From Oculatellaceae cyanobacterium bins.114 (GTDB taxonomy: Bacteria; Cyanobacteriota; Cyanobacteriia; Elainellales; Elainellaceae), in the NCBI GenBank assembly GCA_033764315.1, contig JANRJA010000018.1:17496-81495 (forward strand): a stretch of 64,000 nucleotides of DNA, read 5' to 3'. Shown piece after piece: positions 5,927-63,767 of this stretch; the stretch's first letter is position 1; each line of letters starts with the position of its first letter. Made by a program: the position numbers and the translations under genes. The notes under the pieces are model-generated. The model worked only from the letters and a program-made list of their open reading frames with translations, was not told where the DNA came from and ran no database searches.

Positions 5927-6824
5927 GACTCTTGACACTCAAAACCAACAACCAGTGAGACGCTTGCGTCTGTTCAGTTCTCCCAATCCCACTGATAAAA
6001 CCAGGTCAGGTATATGGTTGAGAGTATTGGTATATGCCGGACTGATTACCTATGCCGTACTCACGCTAATCCCGTTTCTTTGGGCATTGTCTGCCTCTTT
6101 TAAGCCCCTATCAGAGATCGCCAGTGGTGAACCCAATTTCTTGCCGCAACAATTTACCCTTGATAACTATCGCAACATCTTTCGAGAGCCCTTGTTTTTG
6201 CGCTGGCTATTTAACAGTGTGGCGATCGCCGTCAGTGTCACTCTTTTGAATCTTCTGTTTAACTCAATGGCGGGCTATGCTCTGGCTCGACTGCGGTTTC
6301 AAGGCAGACAGTTCTGGTTTTTTCTAATTCTGGTGGTGTTAGCCATTCCTGCTCAGATTACGCTGATCCCTACGTTCTTAATTCTCAAAACTCTGGGCTG
6401 GCTCAACTCCTATCAAGGCATGATTGTGCCAGGAATGGTCAATGCCACCTTTATCTTTATGATGCGGCAATTTTTTATGAATTTTCCGCGTGAACTGGAG
6501 GAAGCGGCTCAACTCGATGGACTGACTCGGTTTGGCACCTTTTGGCGCATTGTCTTACCTCTGGCAAAACCTGCCCTCGCGGCTCAAGCAATTTTTGTCT
6601 TTATGGGCAGTTGGAATAACTTTTTAATGCCAGTGGTGATTTTGTTTGACCCAGAGATGTTTACCCTGCCGTTGGGTCTAAACACCTTCAAAGGCACCTA
6701 CATTAGTTACTGGAACTACATCATGGCGGCCTCAATGGTCTTCACGTTGCCCGCATTGGCAATCTACGCCTTCTTTAACCGCTACTTTATTGAGGGAGTG
6801 ACCTTTACGGGAGGCAAGGGGTAA
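5919..6824 (+). CDS. carbohydrate ABC transporter permease
   Basis: ELEEAAQLDG motif; overlaps the upstream permease. Confidence 0.93.
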   Translation: MVKTLDTQNQQPVRRLRLFSSPNPTDKTRSGIWLRVLVYAGLITYAVLTLIPFLWALSASFKPLSEIASGEPNFLPQQFTLDNYRNIFREPLFLRWLFNSVAIAVSVTLLNLLFNSMAGYALARLRFQGRQFWFFLILVVLAIPAQITLIPTFLILKTLGWLNSYQGMIVPGMVNATFIFMMRQFFMNFPRELEEAAQLDGLTRFGTFWRIVLPLAKPALAAQAIFVFMGSWNNFLMPVVILFDPEMFTLPLGLNTFKGTYISYWNYIMAASMVFTLPALAIYAFFNRYFIEGVTFTGGKG

Positions 6825-6980
6825 GGAGAAGAAAGAAGAAAGAAAAGAGAAGAAAGAAGGCTGAAGGCTAAAGGATGAGAGGGGATACCGCAGAATGCTG
6901 ATTGAGACATAAAACGCTTTTCTCCCTTCTTTTTTCTGTTTTCCCTCTTCTTTTTATGCTTCGTCCTTCATCCTTTTCAG
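6825..6980. repeat. purine-rich tract facing a pyrimidine-rich tract between convergent genes (short tandem repeat-like)
   Basis: GAAGAAAGAAGAAAGAAAAGAGAAGAAAG... and TTTTCTCCCTTCTTTTTTCTG... Confidence 0.5.
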
Positions 6981-8564
6981 TAAACCCAACCCGGCGATCG
7001 CCAATAAGGTCGGGGTTAGCCAATCGCCCCACCGGACAAAGAGAGTTTGGGTTTGACGACGATAGATCGTGGCGATGTGGGTTTCATAGGTTCTAAAGTC
7101 AGAGATCCAGATGGTGTTACCGTGGGGATCAACGACTCCAGAAAATCCCGTATTCGTAGCACGCACTGCCCAGCGATCGCTCTCAATCGACCGCATGATG
7201 TCTTGAGCGTGATGTTGTGCCATCATCGCGGCTCCATAGGGGTCGTTGTTTGAAGCCGTGAGAATGAACTGTCCTCCTGTGGCGGCCTGATCTCGAAAGA
7301 TGTAGGCAAAGGCAGAGTCAAAGCAAATTCCAGCGATCGCCCTGCCAAAGGGAGTGTCAACGTGTTGATGGCGCGAACCCGGAATCATCGATAGCTCAAC
7401 CGGGGATAAGCGTCTAATCACCTTTCCTAATATCGGCTCAAATGGCAAATATTCACCCAGGGGAACGGGTTTAATTTTGTCGTAGCGGCTCACAATTTCA
7501 CCGTTGCCTGCAATGGTAAAGAGGCTCTGTGTGACTTTGCCATTCTCTAATCCAGGAGTGCCAATCCAGGTAGGGATGCCCGCTTGCAAAATCGCTTGAT
7601 AGAGGGGGTCACGCGATCGATTCATGCCTACCCAAAAATAGGGCAAGGCTCCCTCTGGCATCAGCACGGCATCAACACCTTGAGCCGCTAAGGTGCGATA
7701 GCCATCGGTGTAAGCTTTGACTGCCCGACGCACACCTTCCTCAAATAGTTTAATGCGAGTGGGGATGTTGCCCTGGATGATGCCAATGTTGAGCTGAGAG
7801 TTGGGCAGTTCAACCAGAGGTCGAGTATAGAGCCATGCCCCAATGCCATGCAGGGTGAGCAAGAGCGTCAAAGTAATCGTTAGTAGCCCTTGAGCGATCC
7901 GGTTTCTGGAGGAACTGGAGTAATACAACCACGCTTCTGCTAACAAGCCATTGACAGCCACGATCGCCCCCGTCACAGCATTAGGCCCTGAGAGTTGCCC
8001 CAGATGTAAAATCGGCAGATTATGAGGACTTTGAGTAAACGACAACGAAGCCCACCAGAGGGCAGATTGGCTCCACAGTCCTTCGGTCAGGCACCACAAC
8101 GCTGTGCCCAATAGCACCGACAGCAACGGTAAACCCAGTGACAGGGTCGATTCAGAGCCAAGCCGATGAGGGAGAAGGATCTTTCCTCGGTTGAGCAAAA
8201 ATCGGAAGCTCCAGCCCCAAAAACTCACTAGTGCTCCGCCCCACAGGGTGATAGCTCCCCAGGCAAATAGAGCGATCGCCACACTGGCTAACCAGGGCAC
8301 TCCCATCCACGTCAAGGGATGCAAATCGCGAATCCAGGCGATCGCCAGACCGTAGTAGCCAAATGCCCAAAACAAGGGATACAACCATTGGCTGAATTGG
8401 CTACCCGGATCACTCACATGCAGTCGAATCAACACCCACAAAGGAACCAACGCCACCCAGGCTAACCACCAGGCATTGACCGGAGCCACCGTTAACCCCA
8501 TGAGCACTCCGCCACTGAAGGCGATCGCCAGTTTTGAGGGAAAGTTCAACCGTTTTGCAATCAT
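6954..8564 (-). CDS. lnt: apolipoprotein N-acyltransferase
   Basis: TM N-terminus; QGNI, PEGA, YDKIKPVPLGEY, ICFDS and RATNTGFS nitrilase-fold motifs. Confidence 0.93.
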   Translation of the reverse strand: MIAKRLNFPSKLAIAFSGGVLMGLTVAPVNAWWLAWVALVPLWVLIRLHVSDPGSQFSQWLYPLFWAFGYYGLAIAWIRDLHPLTWMGVPWLASVAIALFAWGAITLWGGALVSFWGWSFRFLLNRGKILLPHRLGSESTLSLGLPLLSVLLGTALWCLTEGLWSQSALWWASLSFTQSPHNLPILHLGQLSGPNAVTGAIVAVNGLLAEAWLYYSSSSRNRIAQGLLTITLTLLLTLHGIGAWLYTRPLVELPNSQLNIGIIQGNIPTRIKLFEEGVRRAVKAYTDGYRTLAAQGVDAVLMPEGALPYFWVGMNRSRDPLYQAILQAGIPTWIGTPGLENGKVTQSLFTIAGNGEIVSRYDKIKPVPLGEYLPFEPILGKVIRRLSPVELSMIPGSRHQHVDTPFGRAIAGICFDSAFAYIFRDQAATGGQFILTASNNDPYGAAMMAQHHAQDIMRSIESDRWAVRATNTGFSGVVDPHGNTIWISDFRTYETHIATIYRRQTQTLFVRWGDWLTPTLLAIAGLGLLKRMKDEA

Positions 8565-59889: not shown

Positions 59890-60099
59890 CTACATATCCT
59901 CTTCATCCTCGGCAATAGCTTCCATAACCTGTTTGACTATTTTTGGATGCAGTGTCTTTCCAGCATGAAAAGGAACCACAACTCTAATGTTCTCTTTGAA
60001 ATAGATTCTATGGCTTCCCTTGCTTCTCAACAAGATGAAACCATCAGCTAACAACAATTTCTCTGCATCTTGAGCAGTAAGGCGAGGGAGCTTAGGCAA
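59890..60099 (-). CDS. hicA: HicA-family toxin
   Basis: GFILLRSKGSHRIY...VVVPFH. Confidence 0.88.
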   Translation of the reverse strand: MPKLPRLTAQDAEKLLLADGFILLRSKGSHRIYFKENIRVVVPFHAGKTLHPKIVKQVMEAIAEDEEDM

Positions 60100-60316
60100 C
60101 TTGAACCTCTAGAGTCATCGTTACAATCTCTCTCGCTAAAGTTTCTTGCTTCTCTTCATCCGAAAGTGTTTCTAAATATAGCTCAACCGCTTCTTGAATA
60201 TTTTCCTTGACCTCTTCTAAAGAATCTCCTTGTGTTTGGCAGCCTTTCAATTTGGGTGAGTAGGCATAATAGCCATACTCATCTTTCTCAATTACAATTC
60301 CAACTTGATAAACCAT
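60092..60316 (-). CDS. hicB: HicB-family antitoxin
   Basis: YYAYSPKLKGCQTQGDSLEEVKENIQEAVELYLE. Confidence 0.88.
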   Translation of the reverse strand: MVYQVGIVIEKDEYGYYAYSPKLKGCQTQGDSLEEVKENIQEAVELYLETLSDEEKQETLAREIVTMTLEVQVA

Positions 60317-60328
60317 ATCAGTACCTCT

Positions 60329-62347
60329 TTATCGCTCTATTTGAATTTGTGCAAAATGTTCCATTAATAATCGATGAACAAAAATGTAACCTCCACCAAC
60401 TCTTTGCAAAAATAACCTATCACAACAAAAATCTAGAAATCGAGCATAGTTCCAAGGAATAAGTTGTTCAAAATACAAAATTAAACGCAAAATAAGATGC
60501 TTTAAACATGCGTCTCCACCATAAAAAAACCAACTCAGAAAACCTAGGAATAAACCGATCAAAACGCCAATTAATCTTCCAGATAATCCATATTTTAGTA
60601 AACTTATTAATAAGAAAAACAATCCTGAAAATACAAGGCAGCACATCATTCCAGCAATAAATGAATTAATAGCTGACTTCAAAATCCCTTGATTTGGACA
60701 GTTTTTAGCATGTAGTTCTGAGGCTTCTACTATTCCCCCTGAAATTCCTGCAAATAACAAAGCAAAAATCAAAACAGATAAACCAAGTGTAATAAGCTCA
60801 TCACTATTTAGAGGGACAATGTTTGCTCCTCCTAACTTGGTAATTAGACCAAGAGCTACAAGAGTTAAACCTATTACCAATTGACTTTTGACCATGCCTA
60901 TCGTTTCTTTTTCTGATTCTGTTCTGATTCCATTACCTTGAAGCCAATCGAAAAAAATAAAATTAAGTCTTTCAACTATCTCAATCTCATAAGGTTTATT
61001 GTCTGGTTTTTTGCGTAAAGTATTTATTCTTACGGCGGGGAAAGATTGAGTGCCAGAAGATTTGTTTCCAATTAGCTTAGTAAGAATTTTATCTACACTT
61101 GGCAGCATAATGACCCAGCCCATAAAACTAATACTATATCCAATTATTACACCCAATAGAAAACCATTTAAGAACCCGCCAGTTATTTCTTTAATCTGAG
61201 TCAATAGTTCTGATAGAAAGCCCAAAAACAATCCTAAAATCAATCCTCCAATTAGCCCAAACGCTAATGTAAAACCTAAGTCATATCTCCATTTCTTCGC
61301 ATACATTGACAACGAATCAGGCTGTATCCACTCAATAAGGAAAATGGTTTGTGACTCTTGAATCATTTGTTTTCCTAAAAAAGATAGCCAATGAATTGTC
61401 TGTTTCAGTGAGTACTTTCCTCCACCCCTTTGCTCAAACATTCGAGAAATGTATTTATTAAATAAATGTCTGCGTTGTTCTTTGAGAGTTAGTCGAGGGA
61501 GTTCTTCGATTGACAAGCCTTGATAGGCAAGTGACATAACCCATAAAAATAGAGGTGTTTTAGCCAGTTCTGCTATTACTGGGTCAGTTTGTAATGCTAG
61601 TTTTACTCCTGCTAAATTTTCACCAGCTTGATTTAAATACTCTCCAACCTGAGTACGAGTGAGAGCGCGAATAAAAATTGCTCCATTAAACTTTAAGCGA
61701 GTGGAGAGCTTTTTATAATCTTTGATGCGACTACAAACTACTAGTTCGGTTTGTCCATAGGCTTGACAAAATTGGTTAATAGCAATTACACAGTCGTCAC
61801 GGTCTTTCTCATTAACTTCATCTAGCCCGTCTAACAATAAAAGCAACTTTTGGTTTTCAATCCAGACTTTGACGTACTTTCTAGCTTGATAGTGTAGGTT
61901 TAGTTCTTGAATCAACCAATCTTTTAATTTAGGTTTTTTGACTGCCCAAGAGGAGAGTTTAAGGACGACAGGGATAGGTTGAGTGATATCTTGTTCAGCC
62001 CGTTCAATCAGTGACTGAGTTAATTCCAAAAGTGTTGTGGTTTTACCAGCACCAGGAGCACCCAAAATTAAGAGTGTTTTAGCTCCAATTCCTAACTCAT
62101 CAAATTTGGAAATGGCTTTTGTTCCTTGAGGTAAAGGTCGTCGTGGTTGTTCAAGAGTTGCCCAATCAAGATCTAGTAAATCTAAGCGTTCTATTAAACC
62201 CAGTTCAATTCGTGCTTGGTTATAGAGCGATTGCTCTATCTTTCTCAGCCAAAAATTTCTTACTTTACTTAAAAGGGCGAGGCGATGCAGGCGTTCATCT
62301 TCAGTTAAGGGAGTAAACTTTACCCGTTCCCGTTCGGGCGATTCTAG
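60329..62347 (-). CDS. NACHT/STAND NTPase with C-terminal multi-TM region; reading frame open up to the TGA at 62348-62350 with no canonical start before the P-loop
   Basis: LLILGAPGAGKTT, LLLLDGLDEV, PWNYARFLD...FLQRVGGGYIFVHRLLMEHF; 94 further open codons upstream of 62065. Confidence 0.85.
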   Translation of the reverse strand, partial: LESPERERVKFTPLTEDERLHRLALLSKVRNFWLRKIEQSLYNQARIELGLIERLDLLDLDWATLEQPRRPLPQGTKAISKFDELGIGAKTLLILGAPGAGKTTTLLELTQSLIERAEQDITQPIPVVLKLSSWAVKKPKLKDWLIQELNLHYQARKYVKVWIENQKLLLLLDGLDEVNEKDRDDCVIAINQFCQAYGQTELVVCSRIKDYKKLSTRLKFNGAIFIRALTRTQVGEYLNQAGENLAGVKLALQTDPVIAELAKTPLFLWVMSLAYQGLSIEELPRLTLKEQRRHLFNKYISRMFEQRGGGKYSLKQTIHWLSFLGKQMIQESQTIFLIEWIQPDSLSMYAKKWRYDLGFTLAFGLIGGLILGLFLGFLSELLTQIKEITGGFLNGFLLGVIIGYSISFMGWVIMLPSVDKILTKLIGNKSSGTQSFPAVRINTLRKKPDNKPYEIEIVERLNFIFFDWLQGNGIRTESEKETIGMVKSQLVIGLTLVALGLITKLGGANIVPLNSDELITLGLSVLIFALLFAGISGGIVEASELHAKNCPNQGILKSAINSFIAGMMCCLVFSGLFFLLISLLKYGLSGRLIGVLIGLFLGFLSWFFYGGDACLKHLILRLILYFEQLIPWNYARFLDFCCDRLFLQRVGGGYIFVHRLLMEHFAQIQIER

Positions 62348-62773
62348 TCAGTTAAATGTGACTGGGGAAGTGAATGTGTTGCCTTGAAAAACGTTTTTAA
62401 TTTCTTCAGCTAATTTGCCATAGTTTTGAACAGTAGCGGGATGAGATTGTTCTAGTCCTTTAGCAAAATCAGTGATTTGTTGAGCTAATTTAGAATTTGC
62501 TTGAACTGCCGTTGCTACTGCTTGAATGGCTTGAAAGATCTCAGGATCGGCCTTTCCAGCTTCCTCTAGTTCCAAAACAGCTTGACCATAATCAATGGTC
62601 TGTTCAGGTTGTTCGATTGCTCCCATTTTAACTAAAGGCTTTTTTCTAATAAGCTGTATCAACTTACTAACTTGAGTGCTGATGGCTTCACCCAAATGTT
62701 CACCTGTTTTCTCAGAGGCTTTAGTGAAGATCAGCGTAGCAATGGCAATTGCTGCAGAGGTGAGGGGTTCCAT
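62348..62773 (-). CDS. small helical protein in frame with the NACHT gene (candidate Bell/HeLo-like effector)
   Basis: MEPLTSAAIAIATLIFTKASEKTGE...QNYGKLAEEIKNVFQGNTFTSPVTFN*; 141 aa. Confidence 0.7.
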   Translation of the reverse strand: MEPLTSAAIAIATLIFTKASEKTGEHLGEAISTQVSKLIQLIRKKPLVKMGAIEQPEQTIDYGQAVLELEEAGKADPEIFQAIQAVATAVQANSKLAQQITDFAKGLEQSHPATVQNYGKLAEEIKNVFQGNTFTSPVTFN

Positions 62774-62864
62774 AGAGAATAGAAGGGCTAGGAATATTGT
62801 TATTCTACCTATGGCTGACAAATTTCTTTTAGGATTGGTGCATTAATTCTAGAAACTTAAAAGC

Positions 62865-63099
62865 ATGATTTTAGAAGTTGCTTTGTTAGACGTTCGCCCC
62901 GAAATGGAGAGTGAGTTTGAACAGGTTTTTGCTCAAGCATCTCCGATCATTGCGGCAACCGAGGGCTACATTTCTCACGAGTTACAACGCTGTATTGAGA
63001 TGGTTAGAGGCGATCGGCTTTGAGCAGGTCGATTGCTGGTACAAAAATTTTCGTTTTGCAGTGTTTGGAGGTCGCCGTCCTCTCAGTACATCCCGTTAA
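62865..63099 (+). pseudogene. chimeric remnant: 5' part of an antibiotic-biosynthesis-monooxygenase (ABM) gene joined out of frame to the 3' end of a methyltransferase-like gene
   Basis: MILEVALLDVRPEMESEFEQVFAQASPIIAATEGYISHELQRCIE, then in another frame LRWLEAIGFEQVDCWYKNFRFAVFGGRR*. Confidence 0.6.
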
Positions 63100-63176
63100 A
63101 TCACTTGTCTAGAAGATGTCTTGAGGATAAGGTACTGAGATACTACGGTCAGGACACCTGGAATCAAGACAGTCGC

Positions 63177-63767
63177 ATGATTCAACAACCCCTTCTAAAA
63201 ACTGAACGGCTCTTATTGCGTCCCTTTGTCATGGAGGATGCACCAGCAGTGCAGCACTTAGCAGGCGATCGCGATATTGCAGCGATGACCCTCTCGATTC
63301 CCCATCCCTATTCACTGTCGTTTGCAGAAGACTGGATTGAGCTACATCCCGACTTGCTAGCCAAAGGAACTGGTGTCAACTACGCCATTGTCTGGGCTGA
63401 AGAGCCGCAATTGTGTGGGGCGCAATTGTGTGGGGCGATCGGGTTAGGGATCGATCCGGTGAAACGCCATGCCGAGTTAGGCTATTGGATTGGCAAACCT
63501 GATTGGGGCAGAGGAATTTGCACAGAAGCGGCTAAAGCCATTCTGAACTATGGTTTTGAGCAACTAGGGCTAGAATGCATCCATTCCACCCACTTTGCCT
63601 GCAATCCGGCATCAGGGCGAGTCATGCAAAAAATTGGTATGCGCTATGAGGCTTATCGTCCTCAATACACCCTTAAGTGGGGCAGGTTTGAAGACATTGT
63701 GCAATACGTCATTACGCGAGAGGACTGGCAAGCAAACCTGACCCAAACCGTGATTGGCGGACTGTGA
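63177..63767 (+). CDS. GNAT (RimJ/RimL-like) acetyltransferase
   Basis: LKTERLLLRPF, AELGYWIG, WGRGICTEAA, NPASGRVMQKIGM. Confidence 0.9.
   Translation: MIQQPLLKTERLLLRPFVMEDAPAVQHLAGDRDIAAMTLSIPHPYSLSFAEDWIELHPDLLAKGTGVNYAIVWAEEPQLCGAQLCGAIGLGIDPVKRHAELGYWIGKPDWGRGICTEAAKAILNYGFEQLGLECIHSTHFACNPASGRVMQKIGMRYEAYRPQYTLKWGRFEDIVQYVITREDWQANLTQTVIGGL

Follow-up and report, generated by a model that had tools for sequence, protein, structure and literature searches.

On the minus strand of a 64,000-nt stretch of DNA from the cyanobacterium Oculatellaceae cyanobacterium bins.114 (contig JANRJA010000018.1, positions 17,496 to 81,495; hereafter, the window), a 141-aa open reading frame (ORF) and the coding sequence of a NACHT ATPase share one reading frame and are separated by a single TGA codon. 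Judging from the sequence and its relatives, we consider it probable that the two constitute one gene with two products, a Bell/BASS-type NOD-like receptor (NLR) cell-death system in which programmed UGA readthrough would yield a free effector and a rare effector–sensor fusion. The small ORF (62351..62773) starts with an ATG at 62773, is coding to 62351 and ends with AAC TGA CTA G. Past the in-frame TGA, the candidate readthrough site (62350-62348), the frame stays open for 672 more codons, up to a TAA at 60331-60329, and encodes a NACHT ATPase followed by a multi-pass membrane region; with X at the stop, the whole frame amounts to 814 aa. The first in-frame ATG, GTG or TTG beyond the TGA is the TTG at 62065-62063, 94 codons on and directly before the Walker A motif GAPGAGKT (62062-62039). 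The original prediction for this locus had given the 141-aa ORF and its ending, the frame running on to 60329, the 814-aa fusion and the absence of ATG, GTG and TTG up to the codon before Walker A, and all of these coordinates were confirmed. The ATG at 62773 is the likely start of the small ORF, because its relatives begin at MEP; an alternative upstream TTG start lies at 62821.

Under the proposed reading, ribosomes would usually stop at the TGA and release the 141-aa effector as the main product. A small share of them would pass the weak UGA-C, helped by a hairpin 8 nt downstream, and continue through the pre-NACHT linker, the NACHT ATPase and the membrane region to give an 814-aa effector-motif-sensor fusion as a minor product. 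Oligomerization of the sensor would then bring the motifs into clusters that could nucleate the fold converting the free effector, which would in turn attack the membrane. As the sensor part has neither a start codon nor a motif of its own, fusion would be the only way for it to carry the motif. We infer the readthrough, the inserted residue, the product ratio, the amyloid templating and the membrane killing alike. Such templating of an effector by its sensor has been shown for other Bell/BASS and fungal systems (10.1101/2020.01.06.895854, 10.1101/2024.11.07.622273). Four of the features by which readthrough sites are recognized are present: a leaky stop context, a conserved in-frame stop, an open coding frame behind it and, 3′ of the stop, a predicted conserved RNA structure spaced to fit the mRNA entry channel. 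Inefficient termination at UGA-C is well documented in bacteria, UGA being the leakiest stop (PMC5289835), and natural UGA readthrough is given as 3-5% for Qbeta in E. coli and 1-6% in a B. subtilis gene (PMC13517186).

The arrangement is widespread among relatives of the window locus. A scan with one genome per species, for which a 9-sequence alignment of the small-ORF family was used (a 35-sequence alignment was too diverse and held no sufficiently conserved stretch), yielded 308 confirmed matches, the best match to the window in this genome collection being 56% identical. We analyzed the best 80 of the 308 loci, picked by likeness to the small ORF of the window and containing 82 small-ORF copies. 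According to the record titles, all but one of the 80 loci are cyanobacterial, and the genera represented include Nostoc, Tolypothrix, Scytonema, Brasilonema, Nodularia, Microcystis, Leptolyngbya, Phormidesmis, Stenomitos, Coleofasciculus, Microcoleus and Waterburya. Eighty of the 82 copies end in TGA and two in TAA (L068, L080), with a sense codon at this position in none. The TGA is followed by C (+4) in 72 copies, and a long in-frame continuation, defined as a frame open for at least 200 codons, or for at least 90 codons up to the contig end, is found in 70, leading into NB-ARC/TPR, NACHT or other proteins. The codon after the TGA is most often CTG (n = 40) or CTA (n = 26), followed by CCA (n = 4), TTG (n = 3) and eight other codons found once each, and the first post-stop residue is kept as Leu via the synonymous CTG, CTA and TTG codons. 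Moreover, the first dozen post-stop residues are alike across all continuations (type L-x-S-P-E-x-E-x-V-K). In a junction alignment of 76 rows, comprising the window and 75 copies in which TGA is followed by at least 90 in-frame codons, columns 16, 17, 20, 23 and 24 are at least 90% conserved.

For comparison, among ORFs that reach at least 200 aa, TGA terminates 13 of 44 in the window and 75 of 249 in the related loci, and TGA-C terminates 4 of 44 and 14 of 249, respectively. TGA is thus an ordinary stop in these genomes, so that a different genetic code does not explain the pattern. It should be noted that relatedness inflates the raw counts; the pattern nevertheless persists after clustering: at 90% identity, 35 of 38 clusters show it, and at 60%, 9 of 11 do. 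The combination of a conserved TGA and an open frame exceeds chance. The expectation that an in-frame stop would be conserved in homologues holds for most of them, the exceptions being a minority with separate genes (L065, L071, L072), the two TAA copies and rare fused forms (P0134, P0135). The question of whether homologues carry a sense codon here, or lie out of frame with start codons of their own, is thereby answered, most of them keeping the stop. As to the leaky UGA-CUA(G) context initially proposed, TGA-C is conserved, usually with CTG or CTA next and with a hairpin behind, but the conservation is not specifically that of TGA-CTAG.

These comparisons bear directly on the possibility that the locus is a pseudogene, left when a nonsense mutation or a sequencing error recently interrupted a fused effector-NACHT gene. 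A single change separates TGA from TGG, a tryptophan occupies exactly the stop position in three relatives (P0134, P0273, P0274), and some related copies have clearly decayed (L024, L058, L002, L071). However, at least 70 related copies from Nostocales, Leptolyngbya-like cyanobacteria, Microcystis, Coleofasciculus and Waterburya share the TGA, the +4 C, the frame and the hairpin, and the 672 downstream codons of the window are intact, being 40-59% identical to full-length relatives. The three W-bearing relatives, for their part, come from contigs of ~2 kb and have a frameshifted NACHT domain, and their W might reflect a gene call with TGA read as Trp; if real, it would fit both the one-step TGG/TGA relation and Trp insertion. 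Set against its relatives, the TGA of the window is not a private nonsense mutation, and a recent nonsense mutation, considered at the outset as an alternative, is contradicted by the conservation across related loci. We regard a pseudogene as very improbable.

Behind the stop, the junction alignment reveals an 8-nt spacer, which in the window occupies 62340..62347 and begins with the +4 C of the CTA codon, followed by a 5-bp stem whose purine-rich loop measures 8-11 nt. The hairpin predicted in the window spans 62322..62339, with the stem formed by 62339-62335 and 62326-62322 around an 8-nt purine-rich loop. RNAalifold, run unguided, predicts exactly this stem, with a consensus energy of -7.4 kcal/mol. 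Over the 70 distinct rows, 97.4% of the cells are paired, compared to 86.5% in column shuffles (none of 500 reaches the observed value), and sliding the partner by 1-3 columns as a control leaves 8-43% paired. Compensatory changes are seen in three of the five pairs (CG 49 / UA 19; CG 31 / UA 22 / GC 3; GC 65 / CG 5), whereas of the remaining two, the outer pair alternates between GU and GC and the other is invariant. The covariation couples Pro/Ser with Val/Thr, for which no reason is seen at the protein level, and the comparison therefore favours an RNA-level constraint on the stem. A covariance model of the junction, applied to 664 kb of loci, finds only Bell junctions, including those of L024 and L058 that were not used in building it; no further copy was found in the window or in the 664 kb outside Bell junctions, the two other matches having E values of 0.67 and 0.78. 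The hairpin loop (alignment columns 29-39; window 62327-62334) is Shine-Dalgarno-like in many loci (GGAGGAG), with no start codon at a suitable distance. A transcription terminator was rejected because no T-run follows the stem, and frameshifting was rejected because the sequence beyond the stop stays in the zero frame.

Bacterial selenocysteine insertion likewise relies on a small hairpin shortly after an in-frame UGA, and the stem of the window starts 9 nt after its UGA. Even so, there is very little to recommend the TGA as a selenocysteine codon and the hairpin as an element like the selenocysteine insertion sequence (SECIS). Rfam, scanned over 62000-62900 of the window at E≤10, gives no credible match, SECIS or other, and only two implausible eukaryotic ones. 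No Cys is found at the stop position in the 82 copies or in the fused forms, which carry W or a Ser-containing stretch there, and the context is not a redox one: a selenol ending a G/N/Q-rich tail would seem to have no chemical rationale. The 64-kb window contains no tRNA gene, and cyanobacteria are not, to our knowledge, users of selenocysteine.

Downstream of the TGA, the frame matches Pfam NACHT with 32.7 bits when the post-stop linker is included (curated cut-off, 26.7), the NACHT NTPase domain being located at 61628..62077 with Walker A at 62039-62062 and Walker B, LLLLDGLDE, at 61817-61843. A C-terminal membrane region with ~6-8 hydrophobic segments in a hydropathy scan follows at 60515..61285 (aa 497-753 of 814) and is conserved in relatives that align over 96-100% of the query, for example P0003-P0005. 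The sensor belongs to a very large cyanobacterial family, with 3328 matches among the 8000 candidates scored. The 94 codons without ATG, GTG or TTG (62066..62347) align with a conserved linker inside every full-length relative (e.g., P0003-P0005, P0014). In the public protein set, the NACHT gene of the window (60332-62065, minus strand) is represented by a 578-aa protein, P0001, which starts at the TTG before Walker A and lacks this linker. By precomputed Pfam labels, the NACHT-plus-membrane module occurs with interchangeable N-terminal domains, labelled as S26 signal-peptidase-like, kinase, caspase, TIR, trypsin-like, cyclase, CHAT, AAA and ClpS/TPR, and it has a multi-pass membrane region where NLRs usually carry repeats.

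In the related loci, the same junction precedes sensors of different classes. Among the 75 in-frame continuations, scanned against Pfam at E≤1e-5 and tallied by hand from the output, 53 contain NB-ARC (mostly with TPR) and 12 contain NACHT, so that 65 of the 75 are NB-ARC or NACHT proteins; three have a PsbP-like domain, two, which are short pieces, AAA_16 only, one TPR only and one a PPC domain, and three have no match. The NACHT continuations are of the membrane type, like that of the window, in L001-L003, and several others carry HEAT repeats. The effector, stop and junction therefore travel as one cassette. In L009 (4439-5098), L017 (4439-5074) and L030 (4436-5155), the cassette of effector, TGA and hairpin leads into non-NLR proteins of ~210-240 aa that consist of a hydrophobic stretch followed by a PsbP-like domain. 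Two cassettes per 8-kb locus are found in L003 (4001-6313, NACHT-type, then 6620-8431, NB-ARC/TPR-type) and in L076 (5-670 and 4001-4774).

A rival reading concerns the translation of the sensor. It could be the product of a separate gene, with translation beginning either by reinitiation beside the stop or at some internal or non-canonical codon, so that effector and sensor would meet as separate proteins and the hairpin would serve in coupling, mRNA processing or mRNA stability. Consistent with this, a potential initiator codon directly follows the TGA in 46 of the 80 TGA copies (CTG 40, TTG 3, ATG 1, GTG 1, ATC 1), GTG or TTG occurs 20-25 codons past the stop in most NB-ARC-type loci, the public set calls the sensor of the window as a protein with its own TTG start, and classical two-gene relatives exist (L072). 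Yet the codon after the stop is a non-initiator in the other 34 copies (CTA 26, CCA 4, and AAG, CAG, CTC and TTA singly), and maintenance of Leu through synonymous codons fits elongation. In the window, the first canonical start abuts Walker A and its use would delete the conserved 94-codon linker. Two separate genes would have no need of a shared open frame, which is nevertheless kept in 70 of 82 copies, and the zero spacer between them would be unexplained; furthermore, a separately made sensor would have no copy of the tail motif, unlike the classical relatives. The core Shine-Dalgarno sequences GGAG, GAGG and AGGA are absent 5-15 nt upstream of all 76 first canonical starts, which counts for little, as many genes of cyanobacteria do without such a sequence.

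The stretch between the hairpin and the FVGR motif, where the NTPase module starts, could be compared in 56 NB-ARC-type loci. Synonymous codon differences account for 31.9% in the zero frame as against 19.1% and 18.4% in the other two, which are interrupted by stops in 53 and 45 loci, respectively. In 13 of the 56 loci, the first canonical start is located downstream of FVGR. On the whole, we find separate translation of the sensor unlikely.

The relatives with a different organization at the junction are instructive in this respect. In the classical two-gene locus L072, the small protein ends in the motif and a stop, and 17 nt on, a 1096-aa NACHT-HEAT protein begins with an ATG of its own and has a matching motif close to the N-terminus. 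The readthrough-type relative of this sensor, in L052, has neither a start nor a motif of its own. Similarly, P0004, a classical NACHT-membrane relative of the window sensor, has an N-terminal motif that aligns with the tail of the window effector, whereas the NLR part of the window has no start codon and no motif copy of its own, in which it differs from the described Bell/BASS pairs. The suggestion that a short effector is accompanied by a rare effector-NACHT fusion able to seed its assembly draws support from this contrast. Among the fused forms, P0135 (769 aa, on a 41.6-kb contig) has sense codons through the junction. A junction search with an NB-ARC-type fusion (L036) recovered no fused long protein among 207 candidates, a weak negative given that the search was word-based.

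The small protein itself looks like a Bell-type effector with a candidate BASS-like tail, as judged by its MEPLTS start, predicted helical body and G/N/Q-rich C-terminus. A search at E≤1e-3 among 1.84 billion representatives gave 182 matches, nearly all of them stand-alone proteins of ~140-150 aa. The relatives start with MEP and a hydrophobic helix and align along the whole length, M1 and P3 being nearly invariant among 35 of them. Their tails are rich in G, N, Q and F and are of the type KLAE.IKNVFQGNTF...TFN or of a second type, KIG.V.QGG.... The AlphaFold2 model of the window protein is all-helical, with seven helices and a disordered tail (predicted local distance difference test score, pLDDT, 65.5). 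The MEPLTS motif and the hydrophobic first helix occupy aa 1-23 (62705..62773; helix at residues 3-23 in the model), and the candidate amyloid-signalling motif, defined by family conservation and by the alignment with the N-terminal motifs of classical NACHT-membrane relatives such as P0004, occupies aa 117-141 (62351..62425). The composition and position of the tail fit an amyloid motif of ~25 aa. These are features of the Bell-domain effectors with C-terminal BASS motifs as described by Dyrka et al. (10.1101/2020.01.06.895854) and for Bab/Agp (10.1101/2024.11.07.622273), and a 'MEPIS' N-terminus is reported to be conserved in Bell, Hell and Bab domains (10.1101/2024.11.07.622273).

Neither profile libraries nor fold searches give the protein a name. 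No Pfam, NCBIfam or PADLOC model matches the small protein or its 35 relatives, and Foldseek against the PDB, with a model of pLDDT 65, returned nothing below E = 1. Matches from a PDB profile search (alanine-rich helical repeats and designed coiled coils) were taken as compositional. The ESM Atlas returned clusters of cyanobacterial 'hypothetical proteins', and a lead to PF20701 (HetE-N; 20% of one cluster) found no confirmation with hmmscan. A word-based search for longer homologues of the small ORF, and thus a weak negative, gave only one unrelated-looking protein of 689 aa.

Several observations weigh against readthrough and have to be set beside the evidence above. The stem has only 5 bp, and the junction of the window taken alone folds no better than shuffled sequences (z 0.98), its minimum-energy fold picking another small stem. 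The stem also lies inside the codons of a conserved peptide, and part of its conservation may therefore act at the protein level. The 80 loci are relatives chosen for likeness to the small ORF, not independent trials. Long continuation is missing from 12 of the 82 copies, namely the three classical two-gene loci (L065, L071, L072), the two with TAA (L068, L080), two with a further stop soon after the first (L024, L058) and five with shorter continuations of 99-138 codons (L007, L040, L056 and both copies of L076). In most NB-ARC-type loci, the GTG or TTG codons shortly past the stop make independent initiation possible. Fused relatives exist (P0135, and P0134 with W at the stop position), so that permanent fusion is tolerated. 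Finally, we know of no bacterial precedent for hairpin-stimulated readthrough other than selenocysteine insertion.

Some of the individual copies deserve mention in their own right. In L024 (4421-4430) and L058 (4433-4530), a second stop is found 1 or 30 codons, respectively, past the TGA and the junction motif is intact (76.6 and 72.9 bits). L002 (around 4271) and L071 (around 4343) have an internal TAA inside the small ORF; together with L024 and L058, these copies appear decayed. In L056 (4451-4750), the TGA is directly followed by ATG, the match to the junction model is weak (23 bits), and the 99-codon continuation has no Pfam match. The only non-cyanobacterial record title, that of a Roseivirgaceae metagenome-assembled genome, belongs to L080 (1275-1697), a copy with the second type of tail motif, TAA and no in-frame continuation, which could reflect a binning error or gene transfer.

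The closest known systems in design are those of amyloid signalling. The Bell/BASS-NLR pairs of filamentous bacteria described by Dyrka et al. (10.1101/2020.01.06.895854) are laid out alike in multicellular cyanobacteria: the effector is small and helical, with a hydrophobic N-terminus and a G/N/Q-rich motif of ~25 aa at the C-terminus, and a NACHT or NB-ARC protein is encoded collinearly right behind it; of the 346 matched pairs reported there, 57% are ≤10 bp apart and 42% overlap. In contrast to the window, the NLR of these pairs has an ORF to itself, with a start codon and an N-terminal motif copy that belong to it alone. Bab/Agp of E. coli ECOR25, for which amyloid-controlled abortive infection was shown (10.1101/2024.11.07.622273), combines a Bell-related effector, with a 'MEPIS'-type N-terminus and a C-terminal amyloid motif, and an adjacent sensor, but does so with two genes and two copies of the motif (BASS11). 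The same logic, in which NLR oligomerization templates the amyloid fold of a membrane-targeting effector, operates in HET-S/NWD2 of Podospora (summarized in 10.1101/2020.01.06.895854 and 10.1101/2024.11.07.622273), again with two genes and co-evolving motif copies, whereas in the window one copy would serve both products. The all-in-one NLRs with a MEPIS-type motif (Avast2, bNACHT02/11/23) have the architecture of the predicted readthrough product; these are permanent fusions with no free effector pool, and no amyloid motif between effector and NTPase is reported for them in the account consulted (10.1101/2024.11.07.622273).

With respect to the mechanism, the closest parallels are viral. In phage Qbeta (coat/A1) and at alphavirus sites, a leaky UGA gives an abundant short and a rare extended product, as proposed here, and viral type II sites (UGA-CUA, UGA-CGG) resemble the window in having C after the stop, often as CUA, and an RNA structure 9-16 nt downstream (PMC13517186). 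The cyanobacterial cassette unites these three elements on a small scale. The genes concerned are viral, however, the alphavirus stems measure 126-177 nt, compared to 18 nt in the window, and the Qbeta site is UGA-A with no reported structure (PMC13517186).

Programmed readthrough is rare in bacterial chromosomal genes. The two Bell/BASS texts contain none of the terms 'stop codon', 'readthrough' and 'in-frame', and the first does not contain TGA either (10.1101/2020.01.06.895854, 10.1101/2024.11.07.622273). In the openly accessible full-text literature, no paper was found that connects Bell/BASS genes or NLR genes of bacteria with readthrough or with an in-frame stop, and the literature searched yielded no case of a leaky UGA in a chromosomal bacterial immune gene. 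Both programmed readthrough and NLR-amyloid signalling are known, but their combination, the conserved hairpin and the design with one motif for two products appear undescribed.

As for the genomic neighborhood, a hicB-hicA toxin-antitoxin pair (59893-60316, minus strand; HicB_lk_antitox, E 4.5e-9; HicA_toxin, E 1.7e-14) comes immediately after the NACHT gene and has the same orientation, hicB starting 13 nt past the NACHT stop. Diverging from the small ORF on the plus strand are a 52-aa fragment (62865-63020) that corresponds to the first 45 of the 78 positions of the ABM monooxygenase profile and is possibly truncated, and a GNAT acetyltransferase gene (63033-63764).

The organization also has consequences for annotation. 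Gene callers split such loci and let the sensor begin at an arbitrary codon within it, as in the 578-aa P0001. Screens for motif pairs that require a motif on the annotated NLR would then probably miss the class.

It is conceivable, albeit doubtful, that the stop is a regulated step, with the amount of fusion tracking termination fidelity, and that the junction represents the first RNA-structure-assisted readthrough signal known in bacteria. In that case, UGA suppression rising during infection or stress would produce more seeds and tip the cell toward death, candidate triggers being a phage suppressor tRNA, loss of release factor 2 (RF2) activity and starvation. The association of the cassette with PsbP-like membrane proteins would, on this reading, suggest a portable module that provides any sensor with a free pool of effector. 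Amyloid-signalling NLR systems have been thought to need two genes with co-evolving copies of the motif; here, one copy would serve both partners. If correct, the readthrough reading would give bacterial chromosomal genes a readthrough site that is conserved and associated with an RNA structure, and would mean that the sensor-to-effector ratio is written into a stop codon, which would constitute a new, economical and amplifying immune switch.

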